Source: a virus (taxonomy: Duplodnaviria > Heunggongvirae > Uroviricota > Caudoviricetes). Taken from it: a stretch of 9,366 nucleotides of DNA. The notes beneath the pieces were generated by a model. That model ran no database searches. It was not told where the DNA came from and saw only the letters and a program-made list of their open reading frames with translations. The translations under genes and the position numbers were made by a program. The stretch lies in the IMG/VR virus record IMGVR_UViG_2675903425_000024, one strand, 5' to 3'. This document shows, in pieces, positions 1,245 through 5,508 of the stretch (position 1 is the stretch's first letter; every line of letters begins with the position of its first letter).

Positions 1245-1594
1245 ATGCTTTCCGCGTNNNNNNNNNNNNNNNNNNNNNNNNNNNNNNNNNNNNNNNNNNN
1301 NNNNNNNCGTTATTCTGCTGGTGGTCTGTGGTGCGCTTAGTCTGGGGCTGAATCATTACCGCGATAACGTCATCACCTACAAAGCGCAGCGCGATAAAAA
1401 AGCCAGAGAGCTGGAGCTGGCAAACGCAACCATTACTGATATGCAGGTGCGCCAGCGCGATGTTGCTGCGCTCGATGCAAAATACTCGAGGGAATTAGCC
1501 GATGCGAGAGCTGAAAATGANNNNNNNNNNNNNNNNNNNNNNNNNNNNNNNNNNNNNNGCACAGGACTATATCCGCACTCAGTGCCTGAACTAA
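1245..1594 (+). CDS. Rz: Rz-like inner-membrane spanin (i-spanin), interrupted by two N-runs; embedded Rz1 probably hidden in the masked part
   Basis: After the first N-run, frame 1 reads [70 protein letters not shown], closely matching my recollection of lambda Rz. After the second N-run, frame 2 reads [11 protein letters not shown] then TAA (1592-1594), resembling the lambda Rz C-terminus (...QKYINEQCR). Candidate start ATG 1245 (MLSA...) precedes the first N-run. Frames do not connect across either N-run, so the N lengths are not the true lengths. Confidence 0.7.
1258..1307. other. Run of 50 N (masked or assembly gap)
   Basis: Directly visible; falls in the N-terminal region of the Rz-like gene. 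Confidence 0.99.
1521..1558. other. Run of 38 N (masked or assembly gap)
   Basis: Directly visible; falls in the C-terminal half of the Rz-like gene, where the embedded Rz1 lipoprotein gene would be expected. Confidence 0.99.
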
Positions 1595-1869
1595 GTTTTG
1601 CTGATGCGCCGTATCGTCGCTGTATTCCCTCATTAACAGAGACCGCAGCCCGACAGGGAGACTCCTCTGCGCGAGTGTGCGGGGAGAATCAAAAACGATA
1701 CGCACCGGGGTTTACCGCGTTAACGGAGCGCGGCGTTGTCCCCTCATGGTCGCTGGTTCGGTGCGATGGTGGAAGAAACCGGACGATGTGTTACCTCGCA
1801 AGACCTGTTATGTCATGTGTCTGATTTGTGATTTAAGTCGGATAATTGTCGTTGCCATTAAGCAGAGGA

Positions 1870-1900
1870 TTGATGGCCGACAGGGTGGCATTGTTAGAAT
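1870..1900 (+). promoter_or_regulatory. Candidate sigma70 promoter for the lipoprotein gene
   Basis: TTGATG (1870-1875), 19 nt spacer, then TGtTAGAAT (extended -10, hexamer 1895-1900), about 33 nt upstream of the start codon at 1933. Spacer is longer than optimal; pattern match only. Confidence 0.3.
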
Positions 1901-1932
1901 AAGACTTATTCTTATCTGTGCCGGGAATGAAA

Positions 1933-2259
1933 ATGAAAAGAAATCTTCCGTTAATTATTTTGTTGTCTTCTCTGGTTATGGGCTGTACGCAACATAAAAC
2001 AGATATGCCCCGACAGTTGGTTAAGGCATTACCACAATATCCGGCCTATGCAGCGGCAAATTATATAAAGGGACGGGTTGATGTGAAGTTTGATATTGGT
2101 GCTGATGGTACTGTCACCCGAATTGAGTTTATCCGTTCAGAGCCGCACCATCTGTTTGATGAGCAGGTTGTAAAGGCGATGGCAAAATGGCGATTTGAGA
2201 AGGACAGGCCGCGTAAAGGCGTGAAGAAAACGTTTATCTTTAGTCCTTCTGCACCCTGA
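1933..2259 (+). CDS. Outer-membrane lipoprotein consisting of a TonB C-terminal-like domain (moron)
   Basis: Signal peptide with lipobox (MKRNLPLIILLSSLVMG|C, +2 residue Thr, so predicted outer-membrane sorting). The body (YPAYAAANYIKGRVDVKFDIGADGTVTRIEFIRSEPHHLFDEQVVKAMAKWRFEKDRPRKG) aligns by eye with the E. coli TonB C-terminal domain ([61 protein letters not shown]). Alternative starts GTG 1918 or ATG 1927; GGGA at 1923-1926 favours 1933. Confidence 0.8.
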   Translation: MKRNLPLIILLSSLVMGCTQHKTDMPRQLVKALPQYPAYAAANYIKGRVDVKFDIGADGTVTRIEFIRSEPHHLFDEQVVKAMAKWRFEKDRPRKGVKKTFIFSPSAP

Positions 2260-2390
2260 TTATTTCATCAGAAATTAATTATCACTCTGTTGTTATTCTG
2301 TACATTCCGGCTGGGTAAGTCTTGTTCCGCCGGGTATGAAGATGAAATATTGTTGGAGGACAGTGGGTACCTGCTCCTGTAACCGAACGT

Positions 2391-2591
2391 TCATTTCTCG
2401 TTATTTGTCATGCTGGCCGGACGCAGATGCGTTGCATCTGTTGCCAGCCTTCTCCTGCAGGCTTCAATAACCCACGCTGAAAAGTTACCGGAACCTTTAT
2501 GTTCAAGGGCGATATTGATCTGTTCAATCATGTGATTGGGGAAACGGATATTGCGGGTTGTGGTTCTGCGGGTCCGGTTTTTCGATGACAT
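2391..2591 (-). CDS. Ribbon-helix-helix (Arc/Mnt/CopG-like) DNA-binding protein
   Basis: 66-aa product MSSKNRTRRTTTRNIRFPNHMIEQINIALEHKGSGNFSAWVIEACRRRL... The N(I/L)R(F/W)P beta-strand followed by helix and the G-S-x-N-S/F motif matches the Arc/Mnt pattern. Start chosen at the internal ATG (plus 2589-2591) with SD AAGGA 7 nt upstream; the longer track ORF (to 2651) would overlap the divergent HNH start. Confidence 0.7.
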   Translation of the reverse strand: MSSKNRTRRTTTRNIRFPNHMIEQINIALEHKGSGNFSAWVIEACRRRLATDATHLRPASMTNNEK

Positions 2592-2632: not shown

Positions 2633-2998
2633 ATGGCTGAGCTTCGTACACTCCAGAGCAGAATCAAAACACTGAATACCCGACGGGTGAATATTCTGAA
2701 GGGTGAACAGCGTCGTGTCAGTGGCAGTGCACGTGTTTCCCTCAAGCGTCATATCTGGCTCAGGGATGCCGGGCAGTGCTGTCTCTGTGGTCGTGTGGTT
2801 GACCTCTGTGACAGTGAACTCGATCACCGAATTGCACTTCAGTTCGGTGGTGGTAATGAGGAGACGAATCTCTGGACGCTCTGTACCGAATGCCATCGAC
2901 AAAAGTCTGCTCGTGAAGCGGCGGGTGGTATGCCGGACCCGACGCTGCCGGAGGTGTCCGGAGGTAGTGGCAGAGCGGACGACATCATCGGACTGTAA
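2633..2998 (+). CDS. HNH endonuclease (terminase-associated, HK97 gp74-like role)
   Basis: 121-aa ORF with the HNH/zinc-finger signature CCLCGRVVDLCDSELDHRIALQFGGGNEETNLWTLCTECHRQKS (Cys-x2-Cys...His...Asn...Cys-x2-Cys-His). It sits immediately upstream of the probable cos region and terminase genes, the canonical arrangement in HK97-like cos phages. Confidence 0.85.
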   Translation: MAELRTLQSRIKTLNTRRVNILKGEQRRVSGSARVSLKRHIWLRDAGQCCLCGRVVDLCDSELDHRIALQFGGGNEETNLWTLCTECHRQKSAREAAGGMPDPTLPEVSGGSGRADDIIGL

Positions 2999-3088
2999 CC
3001 CGAGCGGGGGGGTATCATCCGGCGTAAAAAACGATCGCTCCGGACACCGCGCCCCCTCTCACGCAGAGAAAAAATTCCCGTTTCAGGG

Positions 3089-3215
3089 CAGTTAACATGT
3101 TAACTGGCTGCCCGGGCATTTTTGCGGTTTTTATCTTTATTATTCAGTTTGTTGTGCGGAAAAAATGTTAACAGGCTTTTTCAGCAAATGTTAACCAGGC
3201 AGCAGTTAACATTTG
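3089..3215. promoter_or_regulatory. Probable terminase recognition region (cos/cosB-like): cluster of GTTAAC-centred palindromic and repeated elements
   Basis: Perfect 18-bp palindrome CAGTTAACATGTTAACTG (3089-3106) followed by AAATGTTAACAGG (about 3162-3175), AAATGTTAACCAGG (3186-3199) and inverted CAGTTAACATTT (3203-3214): five GTTAAC cores in about 120 bp. An A/T-rich tract (3121-3150) lies between. Located in the 288-bp non-coding gap between the HNH gene and terS. Confidence 0.5.
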
Positions 3216-3286
3216 CGGCATGAGACGCCGGGAAAAATGGGCTGAACCATACCCGGCTGAGTGCGTTCTGGACCCGGGAGGAGGCT

Positions 3287-3850
3287 GTGCTGACAACGCA
3301 AAAACGAAAATTTGCGCTGGCGCTCATGTCCGGGAAAAACAAAACAGCGTCAGCCCTTGCCGCCGGTTATTCGGCGAAGACAGCCAGGGTTAAAGGCTCG
3401 CAGCTGGCAAAAGATCCGGAGGTGCTTGCGTTTATAGCCCGTAAACAGTGCGAGACGGTGGAGGTGGATGAGGTTCCTGTTTATCGGCAGAAAAAATCAG
3501 AGCCGGAGGATAAACCCCGTCGCCGTGAGGCGGCTGCAATACCACAGCCGGACGAAACAAATCCGGAGATGCCACCGCCCGTGGTGATATCTCCTGGTAT
3601 TGAGTATATGGAGGACGGTCTTCCCGATCCGGTGAAAGCGATGGGGCGTCTTCTGGTGGAGAACATTAATACCGACCCCAGGCTGGCGCTGGATGCGGCT
3701 TATAAGCTGGCGCAGTTCACGCACCACAAAAAAGGGGATGCCGGTAAAAAATCGGCAAAAGGTGACGCGGCGAAAAAAGCGGCTAACCGTTTTGCGGTGC
3801 CACCACCACCCCGCCTGGTGGTGAATAATGATAATGAGGGCAACGGATGA
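3287..3850 (+). CDS. terS: Terminase small subunit (Terminase_2 / P27-family type)
   Basis: GTG start at 3287 preceded by the strong SD GGGAGGAGG (3275-3283). The N-terminus (TQKRKFALALMSGKNKTASALAAGYSAKTARVKGSQLAKDPEVLAFI) matches the helix-turn-helix signature of small terminase subunits (...KQ..F......A...AGYS.KTA..GS.L...P.V...I). Stop overlaps the terL start (ATGA). Confidence 0.8.
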   Translation: MLTTQKRKFALALMSGKNKTASALAAGYSAKTARVKGSQLAKDPEVLAFIARKQCETVEVDEVPVYRQKKSEPEDKPRRREAAAIPQPDETNPEMPPPVVISPGIEYMEDGLPDPVKAMGRLLVENINTDPRLALDAAYKLAQFTHHKKGDAGKKSAKGDAAKKAANRFAVPPPPRLVVNNDNEGNG

Positions 3851-5508
3851 TACCTGTGTGGAGCACGGCCTGCCCGGACTGGGCAGAGCGCCTGAAAAAG
3901 GGGCTGTCGATTATTCCGGCTCCGATTTATCCGGAGCAGGCCGCACATGCCCTGGCGATTTTTAAACAACTGCGGATTGTGGATGCACCGGGCAGCCCGA
4001 CGTTCGGGGAGTCCTGCGCACAGTGGGTGTTTGACCTGGTGGCGGCCCTGTTTGGCTCCTACGATGCGCAGACCGGTGTACGCCATATCAAGGAAGTTTT
4101 TATCCTTATCCCCAAGAAAAACAGCAAGTCCACGCTGGCTGCCGGGATCATGATGACGGCGCTGTTACTGAACTGGCGGCAGGCGGCGGGCTACACCATT
4201 CTGGCCCCGACCGTGGAGGTGGCGGCTAACGCCTTCAACCCTGCCAGGGATATGGTACGACGGGACGATGATCTGGATGACCTCTGTCAGGTGCAGACAC
4301 ATATCCGGACCATCACCCACAGGGTGACGGACACCACCCTGAAGGTGGTGGCTGCCGATCCGAATACGGTATCCGGTATCAAGTCCGTGGGGACGCTGAT
4401 TGATGAACTGTGGTTATTTGGCAAGCAGTACAAAGCGGAGGACATGTTACGTGAAGCCATAGGCGGCCTTGCCTCCCGCCCGGAAGGGTTTGTGGTGTAT
4501 ACGACCACCCAGTCGAATGAGCCGCCAGCCGGGGTGTTCAGACAGAAACTGCAGTACGCCCGGGATGTCCGTGACGGCAAAATTCATGATCCGCACTTTC
4601 TGCCGGTGATTTTTGAGCATCCTCCTGAAATGGTGGAAAGCGGGGCTCACCTGCTGATGGAAAACCTCGCCATGGTTAACCCGAATCTCGGTTATTCGGT
4701 GGATGAGGCTTTTCTGTACCGGGAGTACCGTAAAGCCCGGGAGGCTGGTGAGGAAGCATTTCGTGGCTTCATGTCAAAACATGCCAATGTGGAAATTGGT
4801 CTTGCCCTGCGTTCTGACCGCTGGGCGGGTGCGGATTTCTGGGAGCAGCAGGGCAGGCGCGTCAGCCTGGACGATATCCTGCAGCGCGCTGATGTGGTGA
4901 CGGTGGGGATTGACGGCGGGGGCCTGGATGATCTGCTGGGAATGTACGTGATTGGCCGTGACAGGGAAACCCGCGAATGGCTGGGCTGGGGCCATGCCTG
5001 GGCGCATGAAACCGCGGTGGTCCGACGGAAGAGCGAGGCGTCCCGGTTTCAGGATCTTGTTGCCTGTGGAGATATGACCATTGTCCGGCGTGTCGGGGAT
5101 GACACGGCGGAAGTGGCGGAATATGTGCGTCGCATTCATGAGGCTGAGTTACTGGACCATATCGGTATTGACCCGTCAGGGGTGGGGCAGATTCTGGATT
5201 CACTGGCGGAAGCCGGGATCCCCGACGGAATTGTGGTGGGGATAAGCCAGGGCTGGAAACTGGGCGGGGCCATTAAAACCACCGAGCGCAAACTGGCTGA
5301 AGGGGTGCTGGTGCATGGTGACCAGCCCCTGATGGCCTGGTGTGTCGGCAATGCCCGGGTGGAGCCTAAAGGTAACGCCATTCTTATCACCAAACAGGCC
5401 AGTGGACGGGGAAAAATTGACCCGCTGATGGCGCTGTTCAATGCGGTCTCCCTGATGTCCCTTAACCCGGAACCGAAAAAGAAAGAATATGCGGTTTTTT
5501 TCATATAA
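3847..5508 (+). CDS. terL: Terminase large subunit (ATPase/nuclease)
   Basis: 553-aa ORF overlapping terS by 4 nt. Walker-A-like P-loop (ILIPKKNSKST), overall length and context typical of HK97-like large terminases. Followed by head genes. Confidence 0.92.
   Translation: MIPVWSTACPDWAERLKKGLSIIPAPIYPEQAAHALAIFKQLRIVDAPGSPTFGESCAQWVFDLVAALFGSYDAQTGVRHIKEVFILIPKKNSKSTLAAGIMMTALLLNWRQAAGYTILAPTVEVAANAFNPARDMVRRDDDLDDLCQVQTHIRTITHRVTDTTLKVVAADPNTVSGIKSVGTLIDELWLFGKQYKAEDMLREAIGGLASRPEGFVVYTTTQSNEPPAGVFRQKLQYARDVRDGKIHDPHFLPVIFEHPPEMVESGAHLLMENLAMVNPNLGYSVDEAFLYREYRKAREAGEEAFRGFMSKHANVEIGLALRSDRWAGADFWEQQGRRVSLDDILQRADVVTVGIDGGGLDDLLGMYVIGRDRETREWLGWGHAWAHETAVVRRKSEASRFQDLVACGDMTIVRRVGDDTAEVAEYVRRIHEAELLDHIGIDPSGVGQILDSLAEAGIPDGIVVGISQGWKLGGAIKTTERKLAEGVLVHGDQPLMAWCVGNARVEPKGNAILITKQASGRGKIDPLMALFNAVSLMSLNPEPKKKEYAVFFI

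Follow-up and report, generated by a model that had tools for sequence, protein, structure and literature searches.

A 9,366-nucleotide stretch of viral DNA (IMG/VR record IMGVR_UViG_2675903425_000024, Caudoviricetes), hereafter the window, was analyzed with emphasis on one gene, which encodes a predicted lipoprotein of 108 amino acids (aa). The mature protein is essentially a single TonB C-terminal domain and not a TonB, and its gene is referred to below as the TonB_C gene. The host element is a lambdoid Escherichia coli prophage with an HK97-type head; positions 1560-2700 of the window show 100% identity to E. coli O157:H7 EDL933 and to many further strains of E. coli that make Shiga toxin (STEC). 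The genes are arranged in the order holin, YdfR, lysozyme, antirepressor, Rz/Rz1, TonB_C gene, ylcI/ynfO (minus strand), HNH endonuclease, small terminase subunit (TerS), large terminase subunit (TerL), and capsid. The features of the locus are listed in Table 1.

The lipoprotein signal, TonB C-terminal domain, and fold

The start codon at position 1933 is backed by a second allele, found in phage 21 (71% identical at the protein level), which has no upstream ATG and carries AGGA 8 nt before the same ATG. The 17-residue signal peptide has a hydrophobic core preceded by a basic n-region and leads into the lipobox LVMGC, and the N-terminus, MKRNLPLIILLSSLVMG/C18-T19, agrees with the PROSITE-type rule for bacterial lipoproteins. 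Relatives at identities as low as 35-50% keep a lipobox (LAVGC, FLMGC, LISAC, LLLGC, and LSAC), and the +2 residue in the family is Thr, Ser, or Ala, never Asp. Under the Lol +2 rule, a residue other than Asp at this position directs a lipoprotein to the outer membrane. Judged from its sequence, the 108-aa protein is predicted to be lipidated at Cys18 and sorted to the outer membrane.

The protein was matched by Pfam PF03544 (E=5.2e-15; 56.1 bits versus a cut-off of 24.6), by TIGR01352 (56.5 bits versus 27.1), and by chains in the PDB that represent the C-terminal domain of TonB from E. coli and Salmonella (E=3-5e-16), which align with residues 26-104 at ~40% identity and with no gaps. Residue i of the protein corresponds to TonB residue i+127. 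The TonB residues Y163, P164, F180, G186, F202, W213, and F230 are retained, Y36-P37 being the counterpart of the YP motif Y163-P164, and Y215 is replaced by F. The aromatic core is retained, and the beta3 edge strand (G96-F103) is kept whole. The full-length TonB equivalogs (NCBIfam PRK10819 and others) reached 50-73 bits against cut-offs of 265-448, for example, 73 against 315. The N-terminal transmembrane anchor through which TonB couples to ExbB/ExbD is absent, the lipoprotein signal peptide standing in its place, as is the Pro-rich spacer spanning the periplasm; only eight residues (TQHKTDMP) lie between Cys18 and the domain. Because it has neither the membrane anchor nor the Pro-rich spacer, the protein cannot transduce energy.

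An AlphaFold2 (AF2) model built on a 15-sequence alignment that included the 35-50%-identical relatives had an overall predicted local distance difference test (pLDDT) score of 86.9, with 96-98 across the domain; a shallow alignment of 16 near-identical sequences gave a pLDDT of 62 and weak fold matches. Using Foldseek, the model was superposed on the TonB structures 1U07, 2GSK_B, and 2GRX_C with TM scores of 0.88-0.92 and root-mean-square deviations (RMSD) of 1.0-1.4 Å: 1.3 Å for free TonB (1U07), 1.0 Å for the BtuB-bound form (2GSK_B, TM 0.92), and 1.2 Å for the FhuA-bound form (2GRX_C). No significant match to the model was found in the BFVD viral fold library. An earlier note on this DNA, made from the letters and their open reading frames (ORFs), had described a lipoprotein signal peptide with Cys at +1 and Thr at +2, and a domain aligning residue-for-residue with the TonB C-terminal domain, to be checked by a profile search against TonB_C and by structure prediction with superposition. 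The signal peptide is confirmed by LVMG/C18-T19 and by the lipobox kept across the relatives, and the wording on the alignment is accurate, since the alignment over residues 26-104 is gapless at ~40% identity. Both checks agreed with it: the PF03544 match was significant, and the predicted structure matched the TonB fold within the deviations given above.

Table 1. Features of the TonB_C locus (positions in the window)
Feature	Position	Strand	Remarks
Rz (i-spanin) with embedded Rz1 (o-spanin)	1245..1594	+	partly N-masked; EDL933 100% identical on the unmasked flanks
Conserved spacer 3' of Rz	1604..1785	.	kept in phages whether or not they have the TonB_C gene
Moron cassette, 595-bp insertion	1786..2380	+	relative to phages without the TonB_C gene
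Candidate promoter	1870..1900	+	weak -35 TTGATG (1870-1875), 19-nt spacer, extended -10 TGTTAGAAT (1892-1900)
Possible operator	1896..1916	.	AGAATAAG-a-CTTATTCT, a perfect 8-1-8 palindrome (1896-1912) that overlaps a degenerate Fur-like 19-mer (1898-1916)
Coding sequence, 108-aa TonB_C lipoprotein (predicted)	1933..2259	+	intact ORF; RefSeq WP_000828070.1 'TonB family protein'
Signal peptide and lipobox (predicted)	1933..1986	+	LVMG/C; Cys18 codon 1984-1986; +2 residue Thr; read from sequence
TonB_C domain	2008..2244	+	residues 26-104, equivalent to E. coli TonB 153-231; gapless alignment; AF2 and Foldseek
ylcI/ynfO-family (DUF3950) gene	2391..2591	-	convergent with the TonB_C gene; marks where the insertion ends on the right; EDL933 annotation
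HNH endonuclease	2633-2998	+	packaging side of the moron slot
Terminase small subunit	3287-3850	+	packaging side of the moron slot
Terminase large subunit	3847-5508	+	packaging side of the moron slot; packaging-side block 2633..5508

Insertion, distribution, and regulation of the gene

The TonB_C gene is a moron situated after the lysis cassette and ahead of the packaging genes. In phage vB_EcoS-569R3 (locus L002), which does not carry it, the equivalents of 1604-1785 and 2381-2800 are contiguous with a 9-bp overlap, and the intervening segment of the window is therefore a 595-bp insertion. The junctions of the moron carry AACCGGACG and AACCGAACG, and its base composition is distinct from its surroundings, as expected of a moron (GC content of 0.39-0.46 across 1801-2300 versus 0.52-0.60 in the flanks). 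The gene had been placed by the earlier note after Rz, in the position equivalent to bor of lambda. Rz/Rz1 indeed lies directly upstream, at a distance of ~340 bp, and the accessory region from the lysis genes to cos is shared with bor. A replacement of bor was rejected: phage 21 (locus L273, OL657228, 3227-4327) has the order i-spanin, o-spanin, bor (minus strand), TonB_C gene CPT_21_73, and cosQ, and because the two genes coexist side by side there, the TonB_C gene is not a positional replacement of bor.

The word-indexed search returned relatives from E. coli only, in the form of two alleles, A (the window) and B (phage 21), with 71% aa identity; the phage 21 protein is annotated as 'TonB C-terminal domain protein'. 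The exhaustive HMMER search yielded 4933 TonB_C proteins at E<=1e-3, including a distinct subset of ~110 aa that have a lipobox and can be aligned over their whole length, signal peptide included, at 35-50% identity. In the neighbor-joining tree, the lipoproteins formed a clade of their own, apart from the genuine enterobacterial TonB C-terminal domains; this placement and the ~40% identity to E. coli TonB argue against host tonB having been captured recently. The nucleotide family was present in 1616 of 5426 complete E. coli genomes (~30%), with allele A in 414 and allele B in ~1200, the latter including LF82 and uropathogenic E. coli (UPEC) strains. Its carriers comprise O157:H7 and other STEC, adherent-invasive LF82, UPEC, and the classical phage 21; one cluster of relatives occurs on at least 1000 Salmonella contigs, and the inducible phages with the gene include phage 21 and Stx1a phages. 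Comparison of allele A with allele B gave a dS of ~1.5 and a dN/dS of 0.12. The gene is under strong purifying selection and is functional.

In prophages of E. coli (both alleles), Salmonella, Klebsiella type, and Serratia, the gene lies on the late strand, after the holin-endolysin-Rz/Rz1 genes and before the small terminase gene. This slot is constant though the lysis cassettes are non-homologous, with Rz belonging to PHROG 312, PHROG 214, or the lambda type and the endolysins being lysozyme-type or chitinase-like. Several allele-B variants (P0012, P0013, P0015, P0018, P0019, and P0021) have a frameshift near codon 90, with loss of beta3 and readthrough downstream; such copies make up a sizeable minority, one cluster having 130 members, which suggests frequent inactivation of allele B in some lineages. 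A separate protein of 152 aa, P0155, has the lipobox ALAGC followed by S, a linker of ~50 residues, and a TonB C-terminal domain 62% identical to that of E. coli. Its domain clusters with genuine enterobacterial TonB, apart from the lipoprotein clade, and it looks like an independent second invention of a lipoprotein with a TonB domain. A search of the viral contigs did not turn up its source, and the matches in the plasmid collection were all to genuine tonB genes.

The TonB_C gene probably has its own promoter, as the comparison of upstream sequences suggests. The extended -10 element TGTTAGAAT is kept as TGTCAGAAT in allele B and as TGTTAGTAT in the Salmonella prophages, within a block TGTyAGwAT, and this conservation holds even though synonymous coding sites are saturated. 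A generic consensus scan of the window returned no plus-strand promoter and no terminator, and the -35 element stands 19 nt away from the -10 element. The promoter proposed in the earlier note at 1870-1900 is plausible: the -10 part of it is supported by the relatives, and the consensus scan and the -35 spacing do not favor it. The palindrome AGAATAAGaCTTATTCT in the window is perfect but non-Fur-like; it overlaps the -10 element and sits where the relatives have a Fur box.

In most relatives, the Fur 7-1-7 box TGATAATnATTATCA is located just after the -10 element, 15-18 nt upstream of the start codon. Perfect boxes were detected in Salmonella prophages (including L129, 6972-6986), in L137 (6972-6986), and at the chromosomal loci of Raoultella (L085, 6960-6974) and Klebsiella (L090, 6972-6986); boxes with one mismatch were found in L086-L089 and in Serratia L091 and L093. 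The sites of the relatives match the Fur 19-mer consensus at 14-17 of 19 positions, and a score of 15 is attained by less than 1% of 160-nt windows drawn at random from these loci. A Serratia relative also has a strong intrinsic terminator directly 3' of the stop codon. The ancestral unit was probably composed of a promoter, a Fur operator, the gene, and a terminator, and the Fur boxes on the promoters of the relatives would place the family in the iron/TonB regulon. A further perfect Fur 7-1-7 box, absent from the window, was observed in L032 (6787-6801) and at the same site in ~40 other allele-A prophages with a lambda Nu1/A-type terminase, ~460 nt downstream of the TonB_C stop codon and ~250 nt upstream of the Nu1-like gene.

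Proposed function and alternative explanations

Two identities suggested by existing annotations were examined against these data. The PHROG 1267 family, labeled 'Rz-like spanin', matches the protein end to end (E=2.6e-42; window 1933-2256), and an outer-membrane-type lipoprotein encoded just after Rz is what an o-spanin, or a second o-spanin, would look like. There is practically no chance that it is one. A separate Pro-rich Rz1, lying within Rz or overlapping it, is present in EDL933, Salmonella L129, Serratia L093, and L137, and has its own annotation in phage 21, so this candidate was rejected; moreover, o-spanins are short, Pro-rich, and largely unstructured, as opposed to a folded 80-residue TonB_C domain with a pLDDT of 96-98, and the gene occurs in chromosomal copies without Rz nearby and at ~340 bp from Rz in the window. 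The PHROG 1267 label is almost certainly an annotation by adjacency, an error likely to propagate. It is also very improbable that the gene is a decaying, functionless fragment of a captured host tonB. Older or derived annotations do describe it as partial or as a fragment (e.g., 'partial tonB-like membrane protein'), and frameshifted variants without beta3 exist, mainly of allele B, but this reading was rejected on the basis of the dN/dS of 0.12, the lipobox kept down to 35% identity, the separate clade, and the conserved promoter elements.

The function proposed here as the likeliest, with a chance somewhat short of even, is that of a TonB decoy that would act at Ton boxes and exclude TonB-dependent phages and colicins. 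The earlier note had already suggested that a TonB-C mimic facing the periplasm could compete with TonB at receptors such as FhuA or BtuB, an idea consistent with the fold, the retained beta3 strand and aromatic core, and the Fur boxes of most relatives. The gene would be a self-contained lysogenic-conversion moron. After export, lipidation of Cys18, and Lol sorting to the outer membrane, the eight-residue tether would keep a complete TonB C-terminal domain just beneath the outer-membrane barrels, on the periplasmic face. The domain would capture exposed Ton boxes of transporters, and possibly those of incoming group-B colicins, via beta-strand addition to beta3, and the captured receptors would be uncoupled from TonB. 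The expected outcome would be tolerance to TonB-dependent phages (T1, phi80, and H8 types), colicins, and microcins, at a cost in siderophore and vitamin B12 uptake. As beta3 and the receptor-bound TonB fold are kept and no energization is possible, the protein should act as a competitor of TonB. The Ton box is known to pair in parallel with beta3 of TonB (PMC11658791). In vivo precedents with artificial constructs are given in PMC9841981, with reference to Howard 2001 and Tuckman & Osburne 1992: TonB-dependent iron import is inhibited when the periplasmic TonB domain is overproduced, and a Ton-box pentapeptide lowers colicin killing and phi80 infection. Phage exclusion by a lipoprotein in the inner leaflet of the outer membrane, bound to the periplasmic face of FhuA, is provided by Llp of phage T5 (10.64898/2026.03.26.714494). 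Also counted in favor of the decoy are the low scores against full-length TonB equivalogs, the purifying selection and wide distribution that mark a functional gene, the Fur boxes of the relatives, and the complete promoter-gene-terminator units that relatives form.

Several observations weigh against such a decoy. Single chromosomal copies were found in housekeeping neighborhoods of Klebsiella, Raoultella, and Serratia, adjoining lacI-lacZ and a glycine-zipper protein gene in Klebsiella/Raoultella and near ycgN and dsbB in Serratia; these copies suggest a cellular role, which need not be exclusion. TonB residues Q160, R158, and R166 contact the Ton box or the plug, as is known from the BtuB and FhuA complexes and from suppressor genetics; in the 108-aa protein they are replaced by L, K, and Y, respectively, and these positions vary within the family. 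In the relatives, expression derepressed through Fur would place a general TonB blocker at the time when iron uptake is most needed, although the same timing could alternatively mean protection precisely when the receptors are most abundant. The Fur-like site of the window (1898-1916) matches at only 13 of 19 positions, and no 7-1-7 match was found in the window within two mismatches, which leaves Fur control of this allele uncertain; allele B has lost the operator segment altogether. The C-terminal 300 aa of protein J of the carrier prophage are of the lambda-J type (identities of 50% with lambda J and 81% with mEp460), giving no sign of the use of a TonB-dependent receptor, and self-exclusion is not indicated. 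Among the PADLOC defence models, no family was matched at E<=1, and no functional study of the protein was found in full-text literature searches that took in few of the subscription journals.

The Fur-derepression point favors a subtler role, such as that of an iron-regulated accessory of TonB-dependent transport, a role considered unlikely. Such a protein would dock on transporters or on another periplasmic beta-strand ligand to organize, prime, protect, or sense them, and it could also buffer scarce TonB. In this reading, the host would benefit under iron limitation, and the prophages would carry the gene for fitness. In its favor are the perfect Fur boxes on the promoters of most relatives, the single chromosomal copies in housekeeping contexts of Klebsiella, Raoultella, Serratia, and Pseudescherichia, the separation of the lipoproteins as an old clade from genuine enterobacterial TonB, and the very common occurrence of the family, which speaks against a costly inhibitor. 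However, no energy source, partner, or conserved neighbor gene is evident, the Fur box is weak or missing in the E. coli alleles, and an unenergized TonB C-terminal domain on a Ton box is expected to compete with TonB, as PMC9841981 reports for overproduced periplasmic TonB. 

An envelope role during lytic growth, in which the protein would bind peptidoglycan, a spanin, or a holin-endolysin component to tune lysis, is quite unlikely. It would explain the constant slot behind the spanin genes on the late strand, which the gene keeps in prophages of E. coli, Salmonella, Klebsiella type, and Serratia although their Rz genes come from three unrelated families and their endolysins are of two types; late transcripts should include the gene since no terminator was detected in the window between Rz and the gene or after it, and PHROG 1267 is categorized under 'lysis'; yet the Rz/Rz1 pairs are complete in every case checked, lambdoid relatives without the gene keep the flanks contiguous, expression outside lysis is suggested by the Fur boxes, by terminators belonging to the gene itself, and by chromosomal copies with no phage around them, and the lysis-to-packaging region, which also houses bor in phage 21, is a general accessory slot. 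A conversion factor of the Bor/Iss or Lom kind, acting in serum resistance, adhesion, or host interaction with the TonB_C fold as a mere scaffold, would suit a small outer-membrane lipoprotein moron beside lysis genes, as bor is, in a carrier prophage that also has sodC, lom, and presumed NleG-type effector genes. It is improbable: the protein has no similarity to Bor and only TonB_C families match it, bor and this gene occur together in phage 21, the cell surface is probably out of reach for a lipoprotein that faces the periplasm on an eight-residue tether, and the Fur boxes and the chromosomal copies in non-pathogens (Raoultella and Serratia) better fit iron physiology.

Among known proteins, the E. 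coli TonB C-terminal domain (residues 153-235; 1U07, 2GSK, and 2GRX) is the homologous one, sharing ~40% identity, the fold, the YP motif, the aromatic core, and beta3. Unlike TonB, the present protein is phage-carried, lacks the ExbB/ExbD transmembrane helix and the Pro-rich spacer, and has a lipoprotein signal and an eight-residue tether instead; it ends four residues earlier, without TonB 236-239, and has other residues in place of Q160, R158, and R166. As summarized in PMC9841981, unenergized TonB fragments engineered for the periplasm and, conversely, Ton-box peptides act as competitive inhibitors of TonB-dependent uptake, colicin killing, and phi80 infection, which is the mechanism proposed here; the engineered fragments are soluble laboratory constructs that are overexpressed, whereas the present protein is natural, selected, and predicted to be lipid-anchored, and its decoy activity is putative. 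It is similar to T5 Llp and to Cor of phi80, N15, and HK022 in being a small phage lipoprotein, and those proteins act on FhuA from the periplasmic side (10.64898/2026.03.26.714494). It has no sequence or fold relation to Llp or Cor, as only TonB_C families match it in Pfam, NCBIfam, and PDB. The llp and cor genes adjoin receptor-binding or tail genes; the TonB_C gene, unlike them, follows the lysis cassette. Llp is FhuA-specific, with an allosteric action via the plug; for a TonB C-terminal domain, generic recognition of Ton boxes would be expected instead. Like bor of lambda, the TonB_C gene is a small accessory gene for a lipoprotein in the lambdoid region that runs from the lysis cassette to cos, but the sequences are unrelated, and in phage 21 bor is on the opposite strand, the TonB_C gene being on the late-gene strand. 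Extending the decoy proposal to the whole family, a widespread 'anti-TonB' lipoprotein class may be envisaged, made of a lipid-anchored, energy-dead copy of the docking domain, ancestrally Fur-controlled and used by phages and by some enterobacterial chromosomes. It would fill Ton boxes at times of derepressed TonB-dependent receptors, so that one protein of 108 aa, by mimicking a host energy transducer, would confer generic, receptor-independent tolerance to all TonB-dependent phages, colicins, and microcins, unlike the receptor-specific Llp and Cor; this extension is doubtful, its chance being clearly short of even.

The existence of the gene and its domain is already recognized by annotators and is not new. 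Databases list it as 'TonB family protein', 'Protein TonB', 'TonB fragment', or 'Rz-like spanin', none of which describes a TonB_C lipoprotein; 'partial tonB-like membrane protein ... CP-933N' and 'TonB C-terminal domain protein' are further names in use. The PHROG and UniRef labels need correction. To our knowledge, the new points are that the lipoprotein architecture characterizes the family, that the family is distinct from spanins, the post-lysis slot, the strong purifying selection, and the Fur boxes. If the decoy function is true, the protein would represent a new generic form of superinfection exclusion and bacteriocin tolerance by mimicry of the host energy transducer, with a bearing on phage-therapy cocktails that use TonB-dependent receptors, on colicin and microcin probiotics against enterohemorrhagic E. 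coli (EHEC) and Salmonella, and on the uptake of siderophore antibiotics (Trojan horse). If it is instead a transport helper, it would be an unrecognized outer-membrane component of a very well-studied system.

Neighboring genes and the carrier prophage

The spacer between Rz and the moron (~180 bp) is 93% identical to that of vB_EcoS-569R3 and ~70% identical to the phage 21-type allele-B region; it contains no convincing ORF and had no Rfam match, nor did an Rfam scan of the whole window give any. The two N masks in the Rz region, 1258-1307 and 1521-1558, are not to scale, corresponding to 4 nt and 193 nt in EDL933, respectively, and the second one conceals the 3' part of Rz and the entire embedded Rz1. 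The EDL933 counterpart has a normal Rz, and its Rz1 is an embedded Pro-rich lipoprotein, MRELKMKLCVLMLPLVVSAC followed by GSTPPAPVP... In EDL933, the carrier prophage, viewed downstream of the window (locus L194, 2112000-2140000), is rich in cargo genes: it contains sodC, a lom-family gene, and, near the tail-fibre genes, three DUF1076 genes, which we take to resemble NleG-type effector genes.

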